Positions 6,059 to 42,518 of a stretch of 64,000 nt of DNA are shown here, piece after piece. Origin of the DNA: an uncultured Gammaproteobacteria bacterium (GTDB taxonomy: Bacteria; Patescibacteriota; Microgenomatia; Daviesbacterales; UBA10151); the NCBI GenBank assembly GCA_964360965.1, contig CAYHYM010000001.1, forward strand, positions 8,878 through 72,877. The letters are read 5' to 3'. The translations under genes were made by a program, and so were the position numbers. The notes below the pieces were generated by a model. The model was not told the DNA's origin. It saw only the letters and a program-made list of their open reading frames with translations, and made no database searches. The stretch's first letter is position 1. Every line of letters begins with the position of its first letter.

Positions 6059-7860
6059 TATTTGACTTGGTATGTTCCTTTAACCAGAGTATAAGACCCT
6101 CCCGGACCTGATGTAAACAGGATGGAGGATAAACCTGTTTCATAATCTATTATTGACTCATTGGTTATTTTTATTTTCCAGGCTGTTATCTCTTTAAATT
6201 GGTTATTATTACCCGGATCAATAATTCCTTTGTCCGCATAAAATACTCCGCTATTGCCTACATTGCCAATGGTGATGGCACTATTGTTATTGGTTCTTGA
6301 ATCATAAGTAGACAAAAGTACCAGTATACTGTTTCCTTCACCCGTACCCAAGAGTTTATTTTGATTACCCATGATAGCCTTTCCATTAGTTCCATCAGTC
6401 CCTAAAACTATTATCCCGGAACCAGTCCCATAAGAGGAATCTAGTATAAACCTATTCTCATTACCCATGGTAATATCTCCTGCTATCCATATCGGAGTTT
6501 TTACCTTAATGATGCACTGATTGCCCAAAGTCAGGTTGCCGCTAAATTTACCCGGGCCCCAGGCAGTTTGTGAACCGCAAACAGGTTGCGAAAGGGAGCC
6601 TGCAGCTACCGCCTCATTTTTCCATCCTGTTATATTAGCTTCGGATATAGGGAAGGTTTTGGGAGGGGGGTCTTCCGATCCAGGATGACAGTGTGAATTG
6701 GGACAAGCACTACCTGAAACAGTTGAATTAGTAATAGTCTGATAATAAGCATCTTTATCTATAATCAATCTGTCTATTGTATTTGCATGAGCATCACCGT
6801 TAACCCTAGTATTATTTCCTGAAAGCAGGGAATTGGTAGTTCCGCCCATATAAGCCTTAAAGCTTAGGTCTCCGGAAAAGGAATTCCAGCTAGGATTAGC
6901 AGCACTCCAGTTAGGTGACCATTTAGGTTGACCATTGTTGTAGCTTTGAGCCAAGTCATTTTGCCATGACCAGTAATTATTATTATCAGAGGAAGTATCG
7001 ACCATAATCCAATAAGAAATGTCTGCGGAGAGTGTGGGATTTGTGGAAAAGGTCACATCTATCCATCCGTATTCAGTTATCACCAAGCTGCTTGAAAGAG
7101 TTCCTGTAGCAAATACCTCATTTTTTTTAGGCTGTCCGCTATCGTCACCCAAAATTCTGACAGTTACATCCGGAGGATTACCGAATTTTTTTAACTTGAG
7201 AGAGACTTTTCTTATTTTATTTGTCACTTGTGGCCTAAAGCTTTGAGCAATATCCAATCTGTTTTGACTGTCAATTGTTTTCCCAAATAAATAGTCTACA
7301 CAATTTGATCCTTCACAATCTGTCTGCTGATCGGCAGTCGGAGGAACACCTGCTGCCACCCATGCATCACCGGTGATAATATTACCATTACCCATAATGA
7401 TACTGCCGTTTGAATAAATCGAACCTTTAATTGTATTTTCATTACCAAGCTGTAATCCTCCTTCTCCCACCTGTATACCGTAAATAAAGGCCGCCCCAAC
7501 TCCTTTGGAAGTCTCTATCCTTAAGGTCTTTTTAACCTTGGGGGAAGTTTTATTGGGGATGTATCCGGTGGAGGTGATAACTTTGGTGGCTACATCTTTA
7601 GTGGTAATAACAACAGCATATGATCCGTCTGATAAAGCTGTCTCTGTCTCACCTGAATAACTGCCGCCGGTTTTATTAAGTGATACCAAAGCCTTATCCA
7701 CTCCGGCTTCAGCCAGACCAAGGGCTTTTTCCGATCTGGTTGAGTAAACGGCATTTTGCCAATATACTTGAGCCCCTCCTATGATCACCAAGGTCAATAC
7801 CAGCATCACCCCCACCACAATCAGCACTATGGGAAAAATCTGACCCCTTGAACTAATCAT
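6058..7860 (-). CDS. large pilus-associated protein with PilX-N-like N-terminus and beta-helix-like Gly/Asn repeats (putative tip adhesin)
   Basis: N-terminal hydrophobic segment IFPIVLIVVGVMLVLTLVIIGGAQVYW plus ALGLAEAGVDKAL as in the PilX N domain. Repeated IMGNGNIITGD, ITMGNENRF and IMGNQNKLLG motifs. Confidence 0.5.
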   Translation of the reverse strand: MISSRGQIFPIVLIVVGVMLVLTLVIIGGAQVYWQNAVYSTRSEKALGLAEAGVDKALVSLNKTGGSYSGETETALSDGSYAVVITTKDVATKVITSTGYIPNKTSPKVKKTLRIETSKGVGAAFIYGIQVGEGGLQLGNENTIKGSIYSNGSIIMGNGNIITGDAWVAAGVPPTADQQTDCEGSNCVDYLFGKTIDSQNRLDIAQSFRPQVTNKIRKVSLKLKKFGNPPDVTVRILGDDSGQPKKNEVFATGTLSSSLVITEYGWIDVTFSTNPTLSADISYWIMVDTSSDNNNYWSWQNDLAQSYNNGQPKWSPNWSAANPSWNSFSGDLSFKAYMGGTTNSLLSGNNTRVNGDAHANTIDRLIIDKDAYYQTITNSTVSGSACPNSHCHPGSEDPPPKTFPISEANITGWKNEAVAAGSLSQPVCGSQTAWGPGKFSGNLTLGNQCIIKVKTPIWIAGDITMGNENRFILDSSYGTGSGIIVLGTDGTNGKAIMGNQNKLLGTGEGNSILVLLSTYDSRTNNNSAITIGNVGNSGVFYADKGIIDPGNNNQFKEITAWKIKITNESIIDYETGLSSILFTSGPGGSYTLVKGTYQVK

Positions 7861-10320: not shown

Positions 10321-10805
10321 ATTTTCCTCAAGATTGTGGTTAATCTGGACTCATGAGGACCGGAAACATCTGTCCAGGTTACCACCACCGTGATTTTCTT
10401 TTGATCCACTGCTGTATCTTCAATAAAAAACTGTCTTCTGAATCCTGCAGCAATAGTTTCTGAGTTAGCCGCAGTTGCATTTGTTAATACCCCAGATGCG
10501 TTAAAAAAGAAGTAGCAGCTACCTACAGGACAACTGGATTGGGTAGCAGGACAAGTGGGTGGAACGCTGGAACTACAGGCAGTAGAACTGGACCAAATTC
10601 CCGTTCCAGTGGTATCCCTATCTCTTAAACCTCTGACTTTCTCCAATCCCTGTTGTGCCAATTTTGTGGCCTGGGCTTGATTTTGAGAAAAGCTGGCATT
10701 TCGCAACGATGCAATAGTGGCAAAGGTTAAAGCAGCCACTACAATTATAATTACTGCAATCACCACCACCAATTCCATTAAACTCTGACCTTTTTCACTG
10801 AACAT
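10317..10805 (-). CDS. type IV pilin-like protein
   Basis: KGQSLMELVVVIAVIIIVVAAL prepilin-like N-terminus (Q instead of F at +1). Confidence 0.65.
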   Translation of the reverse strand: MFSEKGQSLMELVVVIAVIIIVVAALTFATIASLRNASFSQNQAQATKLAQQGLEKVRGLRDRDTTGTGIWSSSTACSSSVPPTCPATQSSCPVGSCYFFFNASGVLTNATAANSETIAAGFRRQFFIEDTAVDQKKITVVVTWTDVSGPHESRLTTILRKI

Positions 10806-11361
10806 CTATGGCTCCTCCTTGGGATATTGTAAAGCATGCTTTAGCATCATTTTTCTGATTCCTTAGTACTATCATCAAGGTTGAAGCGCTGGTAATACAA
10901 GAATCCCCACCGGCAAAACCCACATTCCCATTCAGAGCAGTAAAGTTCACAGTTAAAGGAGGGGGGAAGGTTGAACCATCCGGAGGGCAACTTGCATTAG
11001 GAACAGGTGAACATTGGATTGAAACTACCTCTGCACCTTCAAGAGTTTGTACTTTTTGTTCAGATTCTAGGGTTCCACAGGTTAATGATAGCTTAAGCTT
11101 ATTCCCATCAAACTTAACTGACCAAGGAACACCGCCTTGATTATTACATAGGACTCCGGCCGTGGCATTGGCTTGAGCCAGCCTTAAATAGGTCTGAATT
11201 TGACCAACAGCTTTGTTTAAAACCTGATCCTGGGTAAAATTCTTAAAGTTGGCAAAAACTACAATTCCCACCAGGGCAGTAATGGTAATCACCACCAAAA
11301 GTTCAACAAGGGTGAACCCGCTTCGACCTCGAAGCGAGGCGAGACCACGGACAGTTTGCAT
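10795..11361 (-). CDS. type IV pilin / pseudopilin (GspG-like)
   Basis: RSGFTLVELLVVITITALVGIVVFANF prepilin motif. Confidence 0.7.
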   Translation of the reverse strand: MQTVRGLASLRGRSGFTLVELLVVITITALVGIVVFANFKNFTQDQVLNKAVGQIQTYLRLAQANATAGVLCNNQGGVPWSVKFDGNKLKLSLTCGTLESEQKVQTLEGAEVVSIQCSPVPNASCPPDGSTFPPPLTVNFTALNGNVGFAGGDSCITSASTLMIVLRNQKNDAKACFTISQGGAIDVQ

Positions 11362-11406
11362 AATTTAAACGTACCATATTTCCTGGGCAACTACCAACTG
11401 GATTAC

Positions 11407-11423
11407 CCACACCCGGTGTGTAC
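11407..11423. repeat. REP-like near-palindrome CCACACCCGGTGTGTAC 3' of the RAYT gene
   Basis: ACACC/GGTGT arms around CGG. The same core recurs at 12138-12151 and 12161-12183. Confidence 0.6.
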
Positions 11424-11441
11424 AAGGTAGACACATCGGGG

Positions 11442-12119
11442 TTATTCTGCAATAAGATGTTTTATTTGATCTAATTTCCTCTGATAATCCATCTGGTCAA
11501 ATGTAAATTTTTTAAACTGATTCAATGAACGAAAATAGGCCAATAAGAACTTTTTATCCACAATGATATTCAATTTTTGTTTACCGAGGTATTCTGAAAA
11601 AGAGCACCATGGATAATTTTCCAACTCTTCAGGCTTTTTAATGATATAAGCAGTTAGGGGATTAAGATGAATGTAACGAGCTACATGAACTAATTGCTCA
11701 TCAGTCTCAATTCTAACTGCCTTAAATCTTGATTGGAAAAGTGACCCATTTCTATCATTTTTAGTATTAAAATATTTTGCATAGCTATTTTGAAAGTTTC
11801 TTGTAAAAGTGGTTATTCCGCCACTATTTATCTCCTTAATTAAAAAATGAATGTGATTTGGCATTAAACAATAAGCTAAAACTTGTATCAATCTTTTGCC
11901 AGTTTGCTCTAAACTTTTTAAAAACTTCGTCTTTTGGTCTTCAGCTAATCGATTAAAATGAGAGTAACGTAAAGTTAGTTTTTCAAATGTGTAAAAATAG
12001 AGTGTTTGAAGTGCTCTCTGATAATCCCTTTCATTGATAAAGATTGGCAGACGTGCCACACTCCGGTTGAAAATATGATAGATTTCACCTTCAACAATCG
12101 GTACTTTGCGGTAGGGCAT
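11442..12119 (-). CDS. REP-associated tyrosine transposase (RAYT, IS200/IS605-like Y1 HuH transposase)
   Basis: HuH motif LMPNHIHFLIK. Catalytic Tyr region ARYIHLNPL...YPWCSFSEY. 225 aa; a paralog lies at 41180-41848. Confidence 0.8.
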   Translation of the reverse strand: MPYRKVPIVEGEIYHIFNRSVARLPIFINERDYQRALQTLYFYTFEKLTLRYSHFNRLAEDQKTKFLKSLEQTGKRLIQVLAYCLMPNHIHFLIKEINSGGITTFTRNFQNSYAKYFNTKNDRNGSLFQSRFKAVRIETDEQLVHVARYIHLNPLTAYIIKKPEELENYPWCSFSEYLGKQKLNIIVDKKFLLAYFRSLNQFKKFTFDQMDYQRKLDQIKHLIAE

Positions 12120-12137
12120 TATTCCAGATTACGCTGT

Positions 12138-12183
12138 ACACCCCGGGGTGTCAAGCTACCACACACCCGGTGTAGATATCTAC
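12138..12183. repeat. REP-like palindromes 5' of the RAYT gene (ACACCCCGGGGTGT perfect 14-bp palindrome; ACACACCCGGTGTAGATATCTAC)
   Basis: Perfect palindrome at 12138-12151. A second ACACC/GGTGT unit follows, with a GTAGATATCTAC palindrome. Confidence 0.65.
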
Positions 12184-12680
12184 GGTCTGGTAAGCCCGTA
12201 GTTGAGGCGATTATCAGGGGGTGAGCTGCAGACTGGATCACTGACCTGACCGGCCCCTTTATTTTCTAATCTGGTGTACAAACAATAACAGATACAACCG
12301 GCAGGGTTAACTGCACTGCAGCTGCCACCTGGTTTACAATCTAATGTGCCAAAAGCCACGTAAGTATAATCCGGCTGGGGAACAGAATCATTAGGCACCC
12401 TGGTTAAATAGACAAACTTTTTACCGGCTGCATTAGTATAAGACAACTCACTGTCTGGTATAACACTAAAAGGGTAAAACTTTTGGTCAGCATGGTATTG
12501 TTGCAAACCGCTTTGGATGAATTTTAAATCTGACAGTCTTTTGCTATCTCTGGAGGCCTTATAAACTGCCTGATAAGTGGAAAAACCAAGCGCAGTTAAA
12601 ATGGCAATAATTGAGATGGCAATCAACAGTTCCACCAAGGTGAAACCTTTTTTAGAATTATCTATCCGGGGATGCTTCAT
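12180..12680 (-). CDS. type IV pilin (PilA-like)
   Basis: KKGFTLVELLIAISIIAILTALGFS prepilin motif. Internal ATG start chosen. Confidence 0.7.
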   Translation of the reverse strand: MKHPRIDNSKKGFTLVELLIAISIIAILTALGFSTYQAVYKASRDSKRLSDLKFIQSGLQQYHADQKFYPFSVIPDSELSYTNAAGKKFVYLTRVPNDSVPQPDYTYVAFGTLDCKPGGSCSAVNPAGCICYCLYTRLENKGAGQVSDPVCSSPPDNRLNYGLTRP

Positions 12681-20580: not shown

Positions 20581-22566
<1,986 letters not shown>

Positions 22567-41101: not shown

Positions 41102-41143
41102 AACAGTTTTCCAATTCTAACACAGCCATTCATTAGTAGTTTA

Positions 41144-41159
41144 GACACCTGGGGGGTGG
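41144..41159. repeat. REP-like element GACACCTGGGGGGTGG 3' of RAYT-2 (inverted partner at 41889-41904)
   Basis: The 14-mer ACACCTGGGGGGTG occurs here and as a reverse complement at 41889-41904. The pair brackets only the RAYT gene. Confidence 0.65.
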
Positions 41160-41179
41160 ATTAGGCAGGCATGTAGGGA

Positions 41180-41848
41180 TTATTCCAAAATAAGATGTTC
41201 AATCAGTTTTAATTTTCTTTGATAGTCAGCTTGATCAAATACAAAATGTTTATATTTTTCCCTGCTTCCAAACATATCCAACACTAAATTTGGTTCTAAA
41301 AAACCATCATTACCAGTAAGATAATTTGAAAAGGATGACCACGGATACTTTTCTAATTCACCAACAGTTCTAACTATAAAATTTGTATAAGGATTTAGGT
41401 GTATATATCTTGAAACATGAATAAACTGTTCATCAGTCTCTATCCTCTTGGCTTTAAATTGATCTAAAAATAAGGAGCCGTCCCGTTCATTCCTGGTATT
41501 ATGATAACGAGTATAACTATTTTGGAAATTACCTATAAATTTTGAAATACCATCCTCCATTTTCTGCTTTAACAAGAAATGAAAATGATTGGGCATTAAA
41601 CAAAAACAAATAATATCAACTAATTTTTCTGCCTGGTTCGTAATTTTGGTAATCTCTTTTTGTTTATCTTGTTCCAACTCCAAAAATTTAGATAATCTAA
41701 TAGGTGGGCTTGAAACTCTATAAAATTCAATTGCCAAAATTGCCCTTTGGTATTCTTTTTTTGTGGTAAAGGTGGGTTGCTTATTTATACCTCTGTTGTA
41801 AACATGGTAGATCTCATCCGTTACAAGTGGAATTTTTCTACCTGGCAT
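41180..41848 (-). CDS. REP-associated tyrosine transposase (RAYT) paralog
   Basis: HuH motif LMPNHFHFLLK. Tyr region SRYIHLNPYTNFIV...YPWSSFSNY. About 50% identical to the 11442 copy. Confidence 0.8.
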   Translation of the reverse strand: MPGRKIPLVTDEIYHVYNRGINKQPTFTTKKEYQRAILAIEFYRVSSPPIRLSKFLELEQDKQKEITKITNQAEKLVDIICFCLMPNHFHFLLKQKMEDGISKFIGNFQNSYTRYHNTRNERDGSLFLDQFKAKRIETDEQFIHVSRYIHLNPYTNFIVRTVGELEKYPWSSFSNYLTGNDGFLEPNLVLDMFGSREKYKHFVFDQADYQRKLKLIEHLILE

Positions 41849-41870
41849 AAAGTCATAATAGATTAATTAT

Positions 41871-41930
41871 CCCTGGGTGTCAACCTGAGACACCCCCCAG
41901 GTGTTTATAGGTGTTTATACAGGTGTTTAT
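41871..41930. repeat. REP-like hairpin (GGGTGTC aacctga GACACCC) plus three tandem AGGTGTTTAT decamers 5' of RAYT-2
   Basis: Seen directly: CCCTGGGTGTCAACCTGAGACACCCCCCAGGTGTTTATAGGTGTTTATACAGGTGTTTAT. Confidence 0.7.
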
Positions 41931-42518
41931 ATCCACTGAATGGACACTCTCCGGATTCCCTATAACCATTTTGATATCGGCAGGTAGTTCAATCTCATGA
42001 TGGTAAAATCCATCAACCACGCTTTTACCAATTTTCATACTAATAGGAGTTTTATAGTCTCTAATAATGGGAACCCCCACGTTGTCTCCTTCTCTAAAAA
42101 AGCTTCTCCACTCTGGTTTACCGACGTCAGCAGGATAAAAATATTTGAACCTTGCCTTAGCTGCTTCAACATCTACCTGACAATCTGAATCAAAAGTCAT
42201 ACCATTAACACTTACTCTAAGTTTTAATTCAGATAAACACTGGGTTAACTGCATAAACCATGGTTCAGACACTACAGCTTTTAAATTTATATCAGGCCAA
42301 TCCCAACCGTCTTTATTGTGATCTTCTCCAAATCTTACTGATATCAATGCCTGTCTTGAAGGTAACTCCACCTGTCTCACTTCTCCGTTAAATTCCCCGT
42401 CAAAAATATACTTTTTAAGTTGAAAAGCATGAACAACAGAATCACCTGACTGGTAAACTAATCTTCCATTAGTAAAAGGTTCAAATTGTTGATCAAATTT
42501 TCTAGTTTCAATATCCAT
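41880..42518 (-). CDS. hypothetical protein
   Basis: 212-aa ORF. No recognisable domain. Confidence 0.35.
   Translation of the reverse strand: MDIETRKFDQQFEPFTNGRLVYQSGDSVVHAFQLKKYIFDGEFNGEVRQVELPSRQALISVRFGEDHNKDGWDWPDINLKAVVSEPWFMQLTQCLSELKLRVSVNGMTFDSDCQVDVEAAKARFKYFYPADVGKPEWRSFFREGDNVGVPIIRDYKTPISMKIGKSVVDGFYHHEIELPADIKMVIGNPESVHSVDINTCINTYKHLGGVSG

Follow-up and report, generated by a model that had tools for sequence, protein, structure and literature searches.

Within a 64-kb stretch of the Patescibacteria contig CAYHYM010000001.1, from a Microgenomates-like bacterium of Hainich groundwater (hereafter, the window, taken at its full length), a gene for a Y1 enzyme, which we call W1, lies between two type IV pilin genes and is bracketed by short palindromes. 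We consider it probable that this locus is a resident module of the REPtron/TIRtron type, that is, a domesticated and vertically inherited gene for a Y1 HUH single-strand DNA endonuclease/ligase, placed between its cognate palindromic units. In a preliminary description of the window, the same locus had been taken for a REP (repetitive extragenic palindrome)-associated tyrosine transposase (RAYT) inserted in the middle of the pilin array. A second Y1 gene, W2, is found elsewhere in the window. The coordinates of all features are collected in Table 1.

The 225-residue HUH-type Y1 protein that had been read from the open reading frame (ORF) of W1 is confirmed. Its translation carries the motifs HIHFL, RYIHLNP and YPWCSFSEY, and it matches the Pfam family Y1_Tnp (PF01797) with 38.1 bits, where the cutoff is 23, and therefore belongs to the HUH Y1 superfamily. 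The two histidines of the HUH motif and the catalytic tyrosine (H89, H91 and Y149) are invariant across 63 homologs. No Pfam domain besides Y1_Tnp was detected in W1 at E ≤ 0.1, including any Bac_DnaA_C or helix-turn-helix (HTH) C-terminal domain. The sole NCBIfam match is the RAYT equivalog NF047646, with 58.4 bits and below its cutoff of 80, and the NCBIfam models for the insertion sequence (IS) IS200 gave no match at E ≤ 0.1. As a phmmer search of the W1 protein against the PDB returned nothing relevant, and as a profile built from 22 sequences gave weak matches only (ISDra2 TnpA and 4ER8, with E between 0.003 and 0.05), predicted folds were compared instead. The AlphaFold2 (AF2) model of W1 has a pLDDT of 89.9 and presents a predicted helical tail at residues 189–224. 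Its best PDB fold is that of TnpA_REP (4ER8), which is closer to it than the folds of IS608 and ISDra2 TnpA.

The assignment of W1 as a class-2, RAYT-type Y1 protein, rather than an IS200 TnpA, is thus supported, because the protein has a Y...NP motif, because no IS200 model of NCBIfam matched, because TnpA_REP is its best fold and because no neighbor has the size of a TnpB (the neighbors of W1 and W2 are pilins, RuvC and a 212-residue ORF without a Pfam match). The preliminary description had itself named clustering with an ordinary IS200 TnpA, accompanied by a TnpB, as the outcome that would speak against it, and this is not what we found. Within class 2, the placement was made by comparison with published motifs alone. 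The motifs of W1 (NHIH, LFQ, with FQ replacing the W motif, YIHLNP and YPWCSF) and of W2 (NHFH, FQ, YIHLNP and YPWSSF), together with protein lengths of 222–225 residues, fit only the row of subclass 2.1 in Table 1 of Quentin et al. 2018 (PMC6006769), where NHVH or NH[YF]H, FQ or W[EQ], YIELNP or Y[IV]HLNP, an SS tail and a median length of 238 residues are given. The same authors equate this subclass with the RAYT Group 1 of Bertels et al. 2017 (PMC5581495) and with most of the TIRYTs, the enzymes of the TIRtrons (Di Nocera et al. 2013, PMC3733652). The C-terminal region of subgroup 2.1.2 is described as heterogeneous. By its motifs, W1 would accordingly be a TnpA_Y1 protein of class 2, subclass 2.1, equivalent to RAYT Group 1 or TIRYT. 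It is not an E. coli-type RAYT, as the NF047646 score indicates. The RAYT identity proposed earlier should therefore be kept in the wider sense of a class-2, RAYT-type protein with cognate palindromes.

Two orthologs of W1 are similarly placed. The same pilin genes come after the one with 90% protein identity (L084), and pilin genes precede the one with 78% (L085). Between W1 and these orthologs, synonymous divergence (dS) amounts to 0.47–1.4, and the ratio of nonsynonymous to synonymous divergence (dN/dS) to 0.08–0.12, reflecting purifying selection. A 36-nucleotide (nt) stretch of the upstream flank, CACCGGGTGTGTGGTAGCTTGACACCCCGGGGTGTAC, is identical in all three loci, and conservation extends to the downstream hairpin. 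Judged from these sequences, the W1 gene and its flanks are functional and under selection, and they have remained in pilin arrays since before synonymous sites became saturated. The location of W1 between pilins is therefore as described earlier, while its having been inserted there is an old event at best and a matter of historical inference only. A recent insertion is not supported, because orthologs at a dS of 0.5 to more than 1 also sit in pilin arrays. No empty site was found, but no search aimed at one was made, as pilins diverge too rapidly and every ortholog found has the gene.

The ACACC/GGTGT palindromes around W1 lie where they had been reported. The pattern ACACC-N0-8-GGTGT was found four times in the 64 kb, compared with an expectation of 0.31, and none of 100 shuffles reached four. 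Three of these sites flank W1, and the remaining one (41890–41904) flanks W2. The outer upstream palindrome of W1 and the stop codon of the pilin gene on that side are 5 nt apart, and the inner palindrome is 100% conserved in the orthologs at a dS of 0.5–1.4. On the gene strand, the core hairpin has an identical reading at both ends of W1. Upstream of W1, the outer hairpin has GTAG on its 3' side and the inner palindrome has it 4 nt to its 5' side, where relatives present ATAG or TTAG. The stems are short (5–7 base pairs (bp)), the single-strand folding energy of the W1 flanks is not significant (z of −0.5 to −2.1), folding favored a longer stem between both upstream palindromes over the small hairpins, and Rfam gave no match in the W1 region.

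The bracketing of the gene by palindromes extends to the family as a whole. A word-indexed search yielded 2172 family proteins at E ≤ 1e-5, an exhaustive search yielded 363 clusters (at 50% identity) at E ≤ 1e-30 and 8342 at E ≤ 1e-10, and the GTDB species genomes contain at least 572 loci, the best 80 of which underlie the counts over 78–80 loci that follow. These 80 loci come mostly from Patescibacteria, or Candidate Phyla Radiation (CPR; Daviesbacteria, Beckwithbacteria, Levybacteria, Saccharibacteria and Paceibacterota), with a few from Chloroflexi, Omnitrophota, Planctomycetes and archaea. The family thus has many members, most of them in Patescibacteria, and it is ordinary, rather than unusual as had been proposed, for a reduced genome to contain a RAYT-like gene. 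In the plasmid database, just distant homologs were found (at most 38% identical and annotated as 'transposase').

Of 78 loci, 55% have a perfect stem of 8 bp or more in the 70 nt upstream of the gene and 42% have one in the 50 nt downstream, as compared with 0.4% of shuffled flanks in either case, and in 46 of the 78 loci the upstream and downstream hairpins have a 9-mer in common. Genes of the family are nearly always bracketed by a palindrome, the sequence of which is lineage-specific. In the closest relatives of W1, the upstream unit consists of the hairpin, (A/T/G)TAGNT and TTGACACC, in this order, with 17 nt between TTGACA and a −10-like hexamer, the end of which is 6–9 nt before the ATG. 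In the downstream unit, the upstream box recurs in inverted form and is followed by the hairpin, and this unit begins 0–25 nt past the stop codon in most loci. When the inner segments of upstream and downstream units were compared, the partner from the same locus scored best in 6 of 12 loci, with a mean score of 6.1 as opposed to 4.5 for cross-pairs. This covariation within a locus is suggestive only, because some loci have direct rather than inverted flanks. The loop is flipped between two close relatives, reading TCTAA in L005 and TTAGA in L007. Divergent paralog pairs within 10 kb are found at several loci (e.g., L014, L022, L035 and L067). The genes of the family have changed genomic context over long time scales.

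The pilus cluster itself, as read from the ORF list and from the Pfam-annotated contig L001, occupies the minus strand, where its limits are a PilT-like ATPase ORF (near 18 kb) and a PilM-like ORF (near 5 kb). W1 is co-oriented with this operon. Its two neighbors are pilins on the same strand, in agreement with the preliminary description, and the interval assigned there to the element (11362–12183) is the whole gap between them. The −10 hexamer (TAATCT) of the promoter-like site upstream of W1 ends 6 nt 5' of the ATG, and the mRNA would thus probably be leaderless and lack a Shine-Dalgarno sequence. Of 79 loci, 15 have an exact TTGACA-N16-18-TAnnnT motif ending 5–9 nt before the ATG (for the most part the closest relatives among those listed), as compared with 0.13% of shuffles, and a −10-like hexamer 5–9 nt before the ATG is present in both window copies and in 13 other loci (in the range of L004–L016). 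A generic promoter and terminator scan omitted the W1 promoter (TAATCT matches just 3 of the 6 positions of the scan's −10) and found no terminator-like feature, and no U-tract after the hairpins, in the W1 flanks. Given the co-orientation of W1 with the operon, its own promoter-like site and flanks free of terminator-like features, there is no support for a polar effect of the module on the pilus operon, nor for the suggested influence on read-through. Pilin genes occur within 3 kb in 4 of 80 loci, about chance level, and location among pilins is not a trait of the Y1 family. One distant homolog (L055, 9970–10657, in the Patescibacteria metagenome-assembled genome H51-bin110_1), 36% identical, is also in a pilin array, where it is antisense to the pilins.

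W2 is arranged in the same manner, with a hairpin variant of its own, as is the case for W1. Its promoter-like site combines a −35 TTGACA (41883–41878), which lies in the upstream arm, with a −10 TATTAT (41860–41855). TIRYT genes are flanked by terminal inverted repeats (TIRs), many of them containing GGGGWSAS (Di Nocera et al. 2013, PMC3733652), and both window copies carry GGGGTGTC, which agrees with this motif at 7 of 8 positions. The loop of the W2 hairpin is TGGGG at one flank and CCCCA at the opposite flank. The 212-residue ORF upstream of W2 (41880–42518, without a Pfam match) has its last residues, INTCINTYKHLGGVSG, and its stop codon encoded by the W2 unit, such that its TGA falls inside the −35 TTGACA of W2, and CAGGTGTTTATA, repeated three times in tandem at 41898–41931, also encodes its tail.

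Solo units, namely palindromic units lying apart from a Y1 gene, are found in relatives. In CPR loci, they are located right past the stop codons of unrelated ORFs on the same contig as the Y1 gene (three copies in L024, and others in L006, L064, L070 and further loci). Of 80 loci kept from a scan of metagenome contigs with the W1-type motif CACACCGGGTGTG(N)GGTA, just 8 contain a Y1 gene. About 25 CPR-like metagenome contigs of low G+C content contain solo W1-type units with the characteristic boxes and no Y1 gene, and in L113 and L121 there are full box-hairpin-box palindromes, about 57 nt long. One contig (L110) is contained in a larger contig, L182 (ENA Hain_H51_01um_R2_3876), that comes from the same sample as the contigs of the window, with a coverage of 4.8 as compared with 4.0 and a tetranucleotide correlation of r = 0.97 with the window, and that shares 35 nt identical to window positions 12139–12173. 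In L182, the variable linker of a 510-residue protein includes an in-frame W1-type unit, giving KPYTHPGVSSYHTPGVDIHLGGG, and hairpins lie in frame also in RsmI (HLSGVKLNP) and in UvrB (CSGHTPGVSTQTHTGCGI). The UvrB of L182 is 15 residues longer than solved UvrBs exactly at the hairpin. It should be noted, however, that HSPGV is native to Bacillus caldotenax UvrB at this position, and the L182 segment is therefore clearly inserted only in part. Low-copy, REP-like dispersal is plausible in this lineage, on evidence from related contigs and not from this genome.

Several other palindromes were noted. In the P0121 gene of L182 (about 7730–7790), a different palindromic insert, GACTGCCAGATGGCAGTC, with an 8-bp stem, encodes RLPDGS and lies within an 11-residue insertion that is absent from most homologs and is flanked by the direct repeat AGGCATAA, resembling a target-site duplication. 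This insertion is shared by P0129, and a further one is located elsewhere in P0147. In two non-CPR loci from larger genomes, L080 (Pirellulaceae) and L083 (Ca. Amarolinea), the cognate palindrome is clearly dispersed, with 10 and 5 extra copies, respectively, within 10 kb, often as doublets, and the same protein family thus accompanies REP/REPIN-like arrays there. Within the window, the CACC..GGTG sites (16 observed as compared with 4.5 expected) were considered as solo units and rejected, as all lie inside ORFs and are without the flanking boxes of the unit. A look-alike at 449–469 in RecG (fragment 9–740), CACATCCGGGGTGTCAACTGA, resembles the inner unit of W1 at 17 of 21 positions, which may be chance, and was likewise rejected as a solo unit, since the protein seems to be no longer at this point than E. 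coli RecG. A 13-nt palindrome, CACCTCCGAGGTG, at 22300–22312 encodes HLRGG in GyrB (20587–22566), between the Toprim and C-terminal domains, and may also be chance. The GyrB stretch is presumably some 11 residues longer than in B. subtilis GyrB.

Table 1 Coordinates of the features discussed, given for the window unless contig L182 is named.
Feature	Position	Strand	Remarks
W1 Y1/HUH gene	11442..12119	-	225 residues; HUH = H89-I-H91; catalytic Tyr = Y149 in RYIHLNP
W1 downstream palindrome	11408..11420	.	CACACCCGGTGTG; begins 21 nt past the W1 stop codon; conserved in L084 and L085
W1 inner upstream palindrome	12138..12151	.	ACACCCCGGGGTGT; perfect, 14 nt; overlaps the −35 box
W1 outer upstream palindrome	12162..12174	.	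CACACCCGGTGTA; core ACACCCGGTGT at 12163-12173, then GTAGATATCTAC; same hairpin in L084 and L085
Left arm of 39-nt imperfect inverted repeat	11404..11442	.	Hairpin, GGTAG spacer, ACACATCGGGG; 74% complementary to 12140-12178
Right arm of 39-nt imperfect inverted repeat	12140..12178	.	Partner of 11404-11442
W1 promoter-like site	12126..12154	-	TTGACA 12154-12149, 17-nt spacer, TAATCT 12131-12126
W2 Y1 gene	41180..41848	-	222 residues; 48% identical to W1; between ruvC and the 212-residue ORF
W2 downstream arm of 43-nt inverted repeat	41142..41184	.	Hairpin CACCTGGGGGGTG at 41146-41158; 74% complementary to 41865-41907
W2 upstream arm	41865..41907	.	Hairpin ACACCCCCCAGGTGT at 41890-41904; loop flipped relative to the downstream copy
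W1-type units on contig L182	7363-7420, 8777-8791, 12372-12409		In frame in three genes (510-residue protein, RsmI, UvrB)
Downstream pilin-like gene (context only)	10795..11361	-	188 residues; N_methyl 28.2 bits; same neighbor in ortholog L084
Upstream pilin-like gene (context only)	12180..12680	-	166 residues from the ATG at 12680; N_methyl 35.6 bits; gene calls in L001

If the locus is indeed a resident, domesticated module, the palindromes would extrude as hairpins in single-stranded DNA, such as the template of the lagging strand, and the enzyme would bind the hairpin and then nick and rejoin the adjoining DNA by means of the HUH-bound metal and Tyr149. This activity might occasionally seed solo units elsewhere, at the 3' ends of genes and even in frame within genes, and the Y1 gene itself would stay put. 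The upstream unit also contains a consensus −35 of the gene's own, by which the gene would be expressed independently, and co-directionally, within the pilus operon.

This reading has some points against it that need to be considered. Hairpin binding, cleavage and mobilization in trans are suggested by analogy with E. coli TnpA_REP and the TnpA of IS200/IS605. No solo unit was found in the 64-kb window outside the flanks of W1 and W2, and within ±10 kb of the homologs cognate units number 30 in 1.0 Mb, half of them in the two non-CPR loci. Any dispersal is thus low-copy, unlike that of classical REPs. Similar coverage and tetranucleotide composition are consistent with L182 coming from the same genome as the window, but are not proof of it. 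A conserved GT[AG]G head 0–2 nt 5' of the hairpin foot is absent in W1 and its relatives. The preliminary description of the flanks as REP-like hairpins should accordingly be limited: palindromes do bracket W1, with a variant for each paralog, but they have neither this head nor a solo copy in the 64 kb. As for the loops of the flanking hairpins, 21 of the 78 loci present a direct and 15 an inverted orientation, a mixture predicted neither by the RAYT rule, according to which flanking units are always inverted (PMC2817692), nor by the IS200 rule of the same strand. Finally, no REP-like hairpins adjoining the genes were reported for subclass 2.1 (Quentin et al., PMC6006769).

The direct loops among these loci are what one would expect, together with the presence of the same palindrome at both ends, as at IS200/IS605 ends, if the gene and its two hairpin ends moved together as an autonomous minimal IS, similar to a TnpA-only IS200, that had inserted in the pilin array. 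Genomic context varies between lineages, with only 4 of 80 loci near pilins, several genomes have two or more paralogs within 10 kb, and the family is annotated as 'transposase' in public records, all of which would also fit such an element. Nonetheless, we consider it unlikely. Near-identical copies were not encountered, since W1 and W2 are 48% identical and have their own hairpin variants, and the orthologs stay in pilin arrays at a dS of 0.5 to more than 1 under strong purifying selection. The protein has Y...NP and not Y...Q and a fold closer to TnpA_REP than to IS608 or ISDra2 TnpA, and among the matches to the W1-type motif solo units outnumber gene-linked ones.

One could also see in the palindromes mainly a regulatory or RNA-level device, i.e., an operator for autoregulation, a promoter module and a 3' stem-loop that stabilizes the mRNA. 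The TTGACA upstream, with a −10-like hexamer 17 nt further on and the exact motif enriched over shuffles, agrees with this, as do the downstream unit, 0–25 nt past the stop codon in most loci, and a flank that is 100% conserved though synonymous sites are saturated. However, regulation leaves unexplained why solo copies are found behind unrelated genes and in frame in coding sequences, and why the same palindrome should stand at both ends across hundreds of lineages with differing sequences. Moreover, the hairpins are not followed by a terminator-like U-tract and have no Rfam match. We thus find this explanation quite improbable on its own, although a regulatory or RNA role of the flanks may well be an added one, compatible with a domesticated module or with an autonomous IS. 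That W1 is a decaying relic with palindromes arising by chance would agree with its short stems (5–7 bp) and unremarkable folding (z of −0.5 to −2.1), but receives almost no credence from us, given an intact ORF, invariant catalytic residues and a dN/dS of about 0.1, as well as four palindromes where 0.31 are expected and hairpin statistics that hold family-wide.

Beyond this locus, we would tentatively suggest, as a possibility to which we give slightly less than even weight, that Patescibacteria carry a widespread and undescribed clade of subclass-2.1-like Y1 proteins with cognate REP-like palindromes that have either loop orientation and no GTAG head and that are dispersed at low copy behind genes and in frame in UvrB, RsmI and a PEP (phosphoenolpyruvate)-utilizing enzyme. 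If true, this would be the first domesticated system of RAYT/REP type in ultra-small genomes, and a tractable minimal case, with few units per 1-Mb genome, for the choice and copying of hairpins. In the literature that could be searched here, no paper linking RAYT or REP to CPR was found, and a CPR-wide clade, bracketing hairpins in a subclass reported without them, and in-frame cognate units all go beyond that literature. For the window, the idea that the pilus operon was recently disrupted by an insertion is removed, as the module is old, co-oriented, self-promoted and conserved. RAYT/TIRYT-type modules are common in CPR, and their cognate hairpins are few enough per genome for every copy to be tracked. 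A focused survey could widen the known range of domesticated Y1 systems and also explain some of the odd in-frame insertions of CPR proteins.

Of the known systems, IS200/IS605 TnpA (subclass 1.1; IS608 and ISDra2) shares with W1 the HUH/Y1 core and flanking hairpins that are often on the same strand. It differs in having Y[IV]ENQ (Y...Q) where W1 has Y...NP and a length of about 150 rather than 225 residues, and W1 has no TnpB neighbor, no identical copies in the 64 kb examined and no match to the NCBIfam IS200 models. E. coli TnpA_REP (the REPtron; subclass 2.2; 4ER8) differs from W1 in presenting DHLH and WE in place of NHIH and FQ, and W1 has an NF047646 score of 58.4 against the cutoff of 80. 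W1 has about 60 additional residues, made up of a helical insert at residues 30–75 and the C-terminal tail, and no conserved GT[AG]G head at the hairpin foot. The orientation of the flanking units is mixed over the family as a whole, and no high-copy REP family was seen. The two are nonetheless alike as class-2 Y1 proteins with Y...NP and a TnpA_REP-like fold, in the nesting of the gene in cognate palindromes that start right past the stop codon, with a palindrome of its own for each paralog, and in being single-copy and vertically retained, with solo units behind genes and sometimes in frame. As compared with subclass 2.1 and the TIRYTs, the hosts are Patescibacteria, which neither survey sampled, the genes of the CPR clade are nearly all bracketed by a clear palindrome where the published survey reported none, and Pfam detects no Bac_DnaA_C, HTH_23 or HTH_28 C-terminal domain in W1. 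On the other hand, W1 agrees with them in NH[VIYF]H, in FQ for the W motif, in Y[IV]HLNP, in the YPW(C/S)SF tail and in a length of about 225–240 residues. Copies are few in both, with a published mean intragenomic identity of 49.2% and an identity of 48% for the pair in the window (two copies). Imperfect and partly self-complementary TIRs are present at both copies and may correspond to those of the TIRYT systems, in which, as seems to be the case here, the flanking repeats are low-copy elsewhere in the genome.

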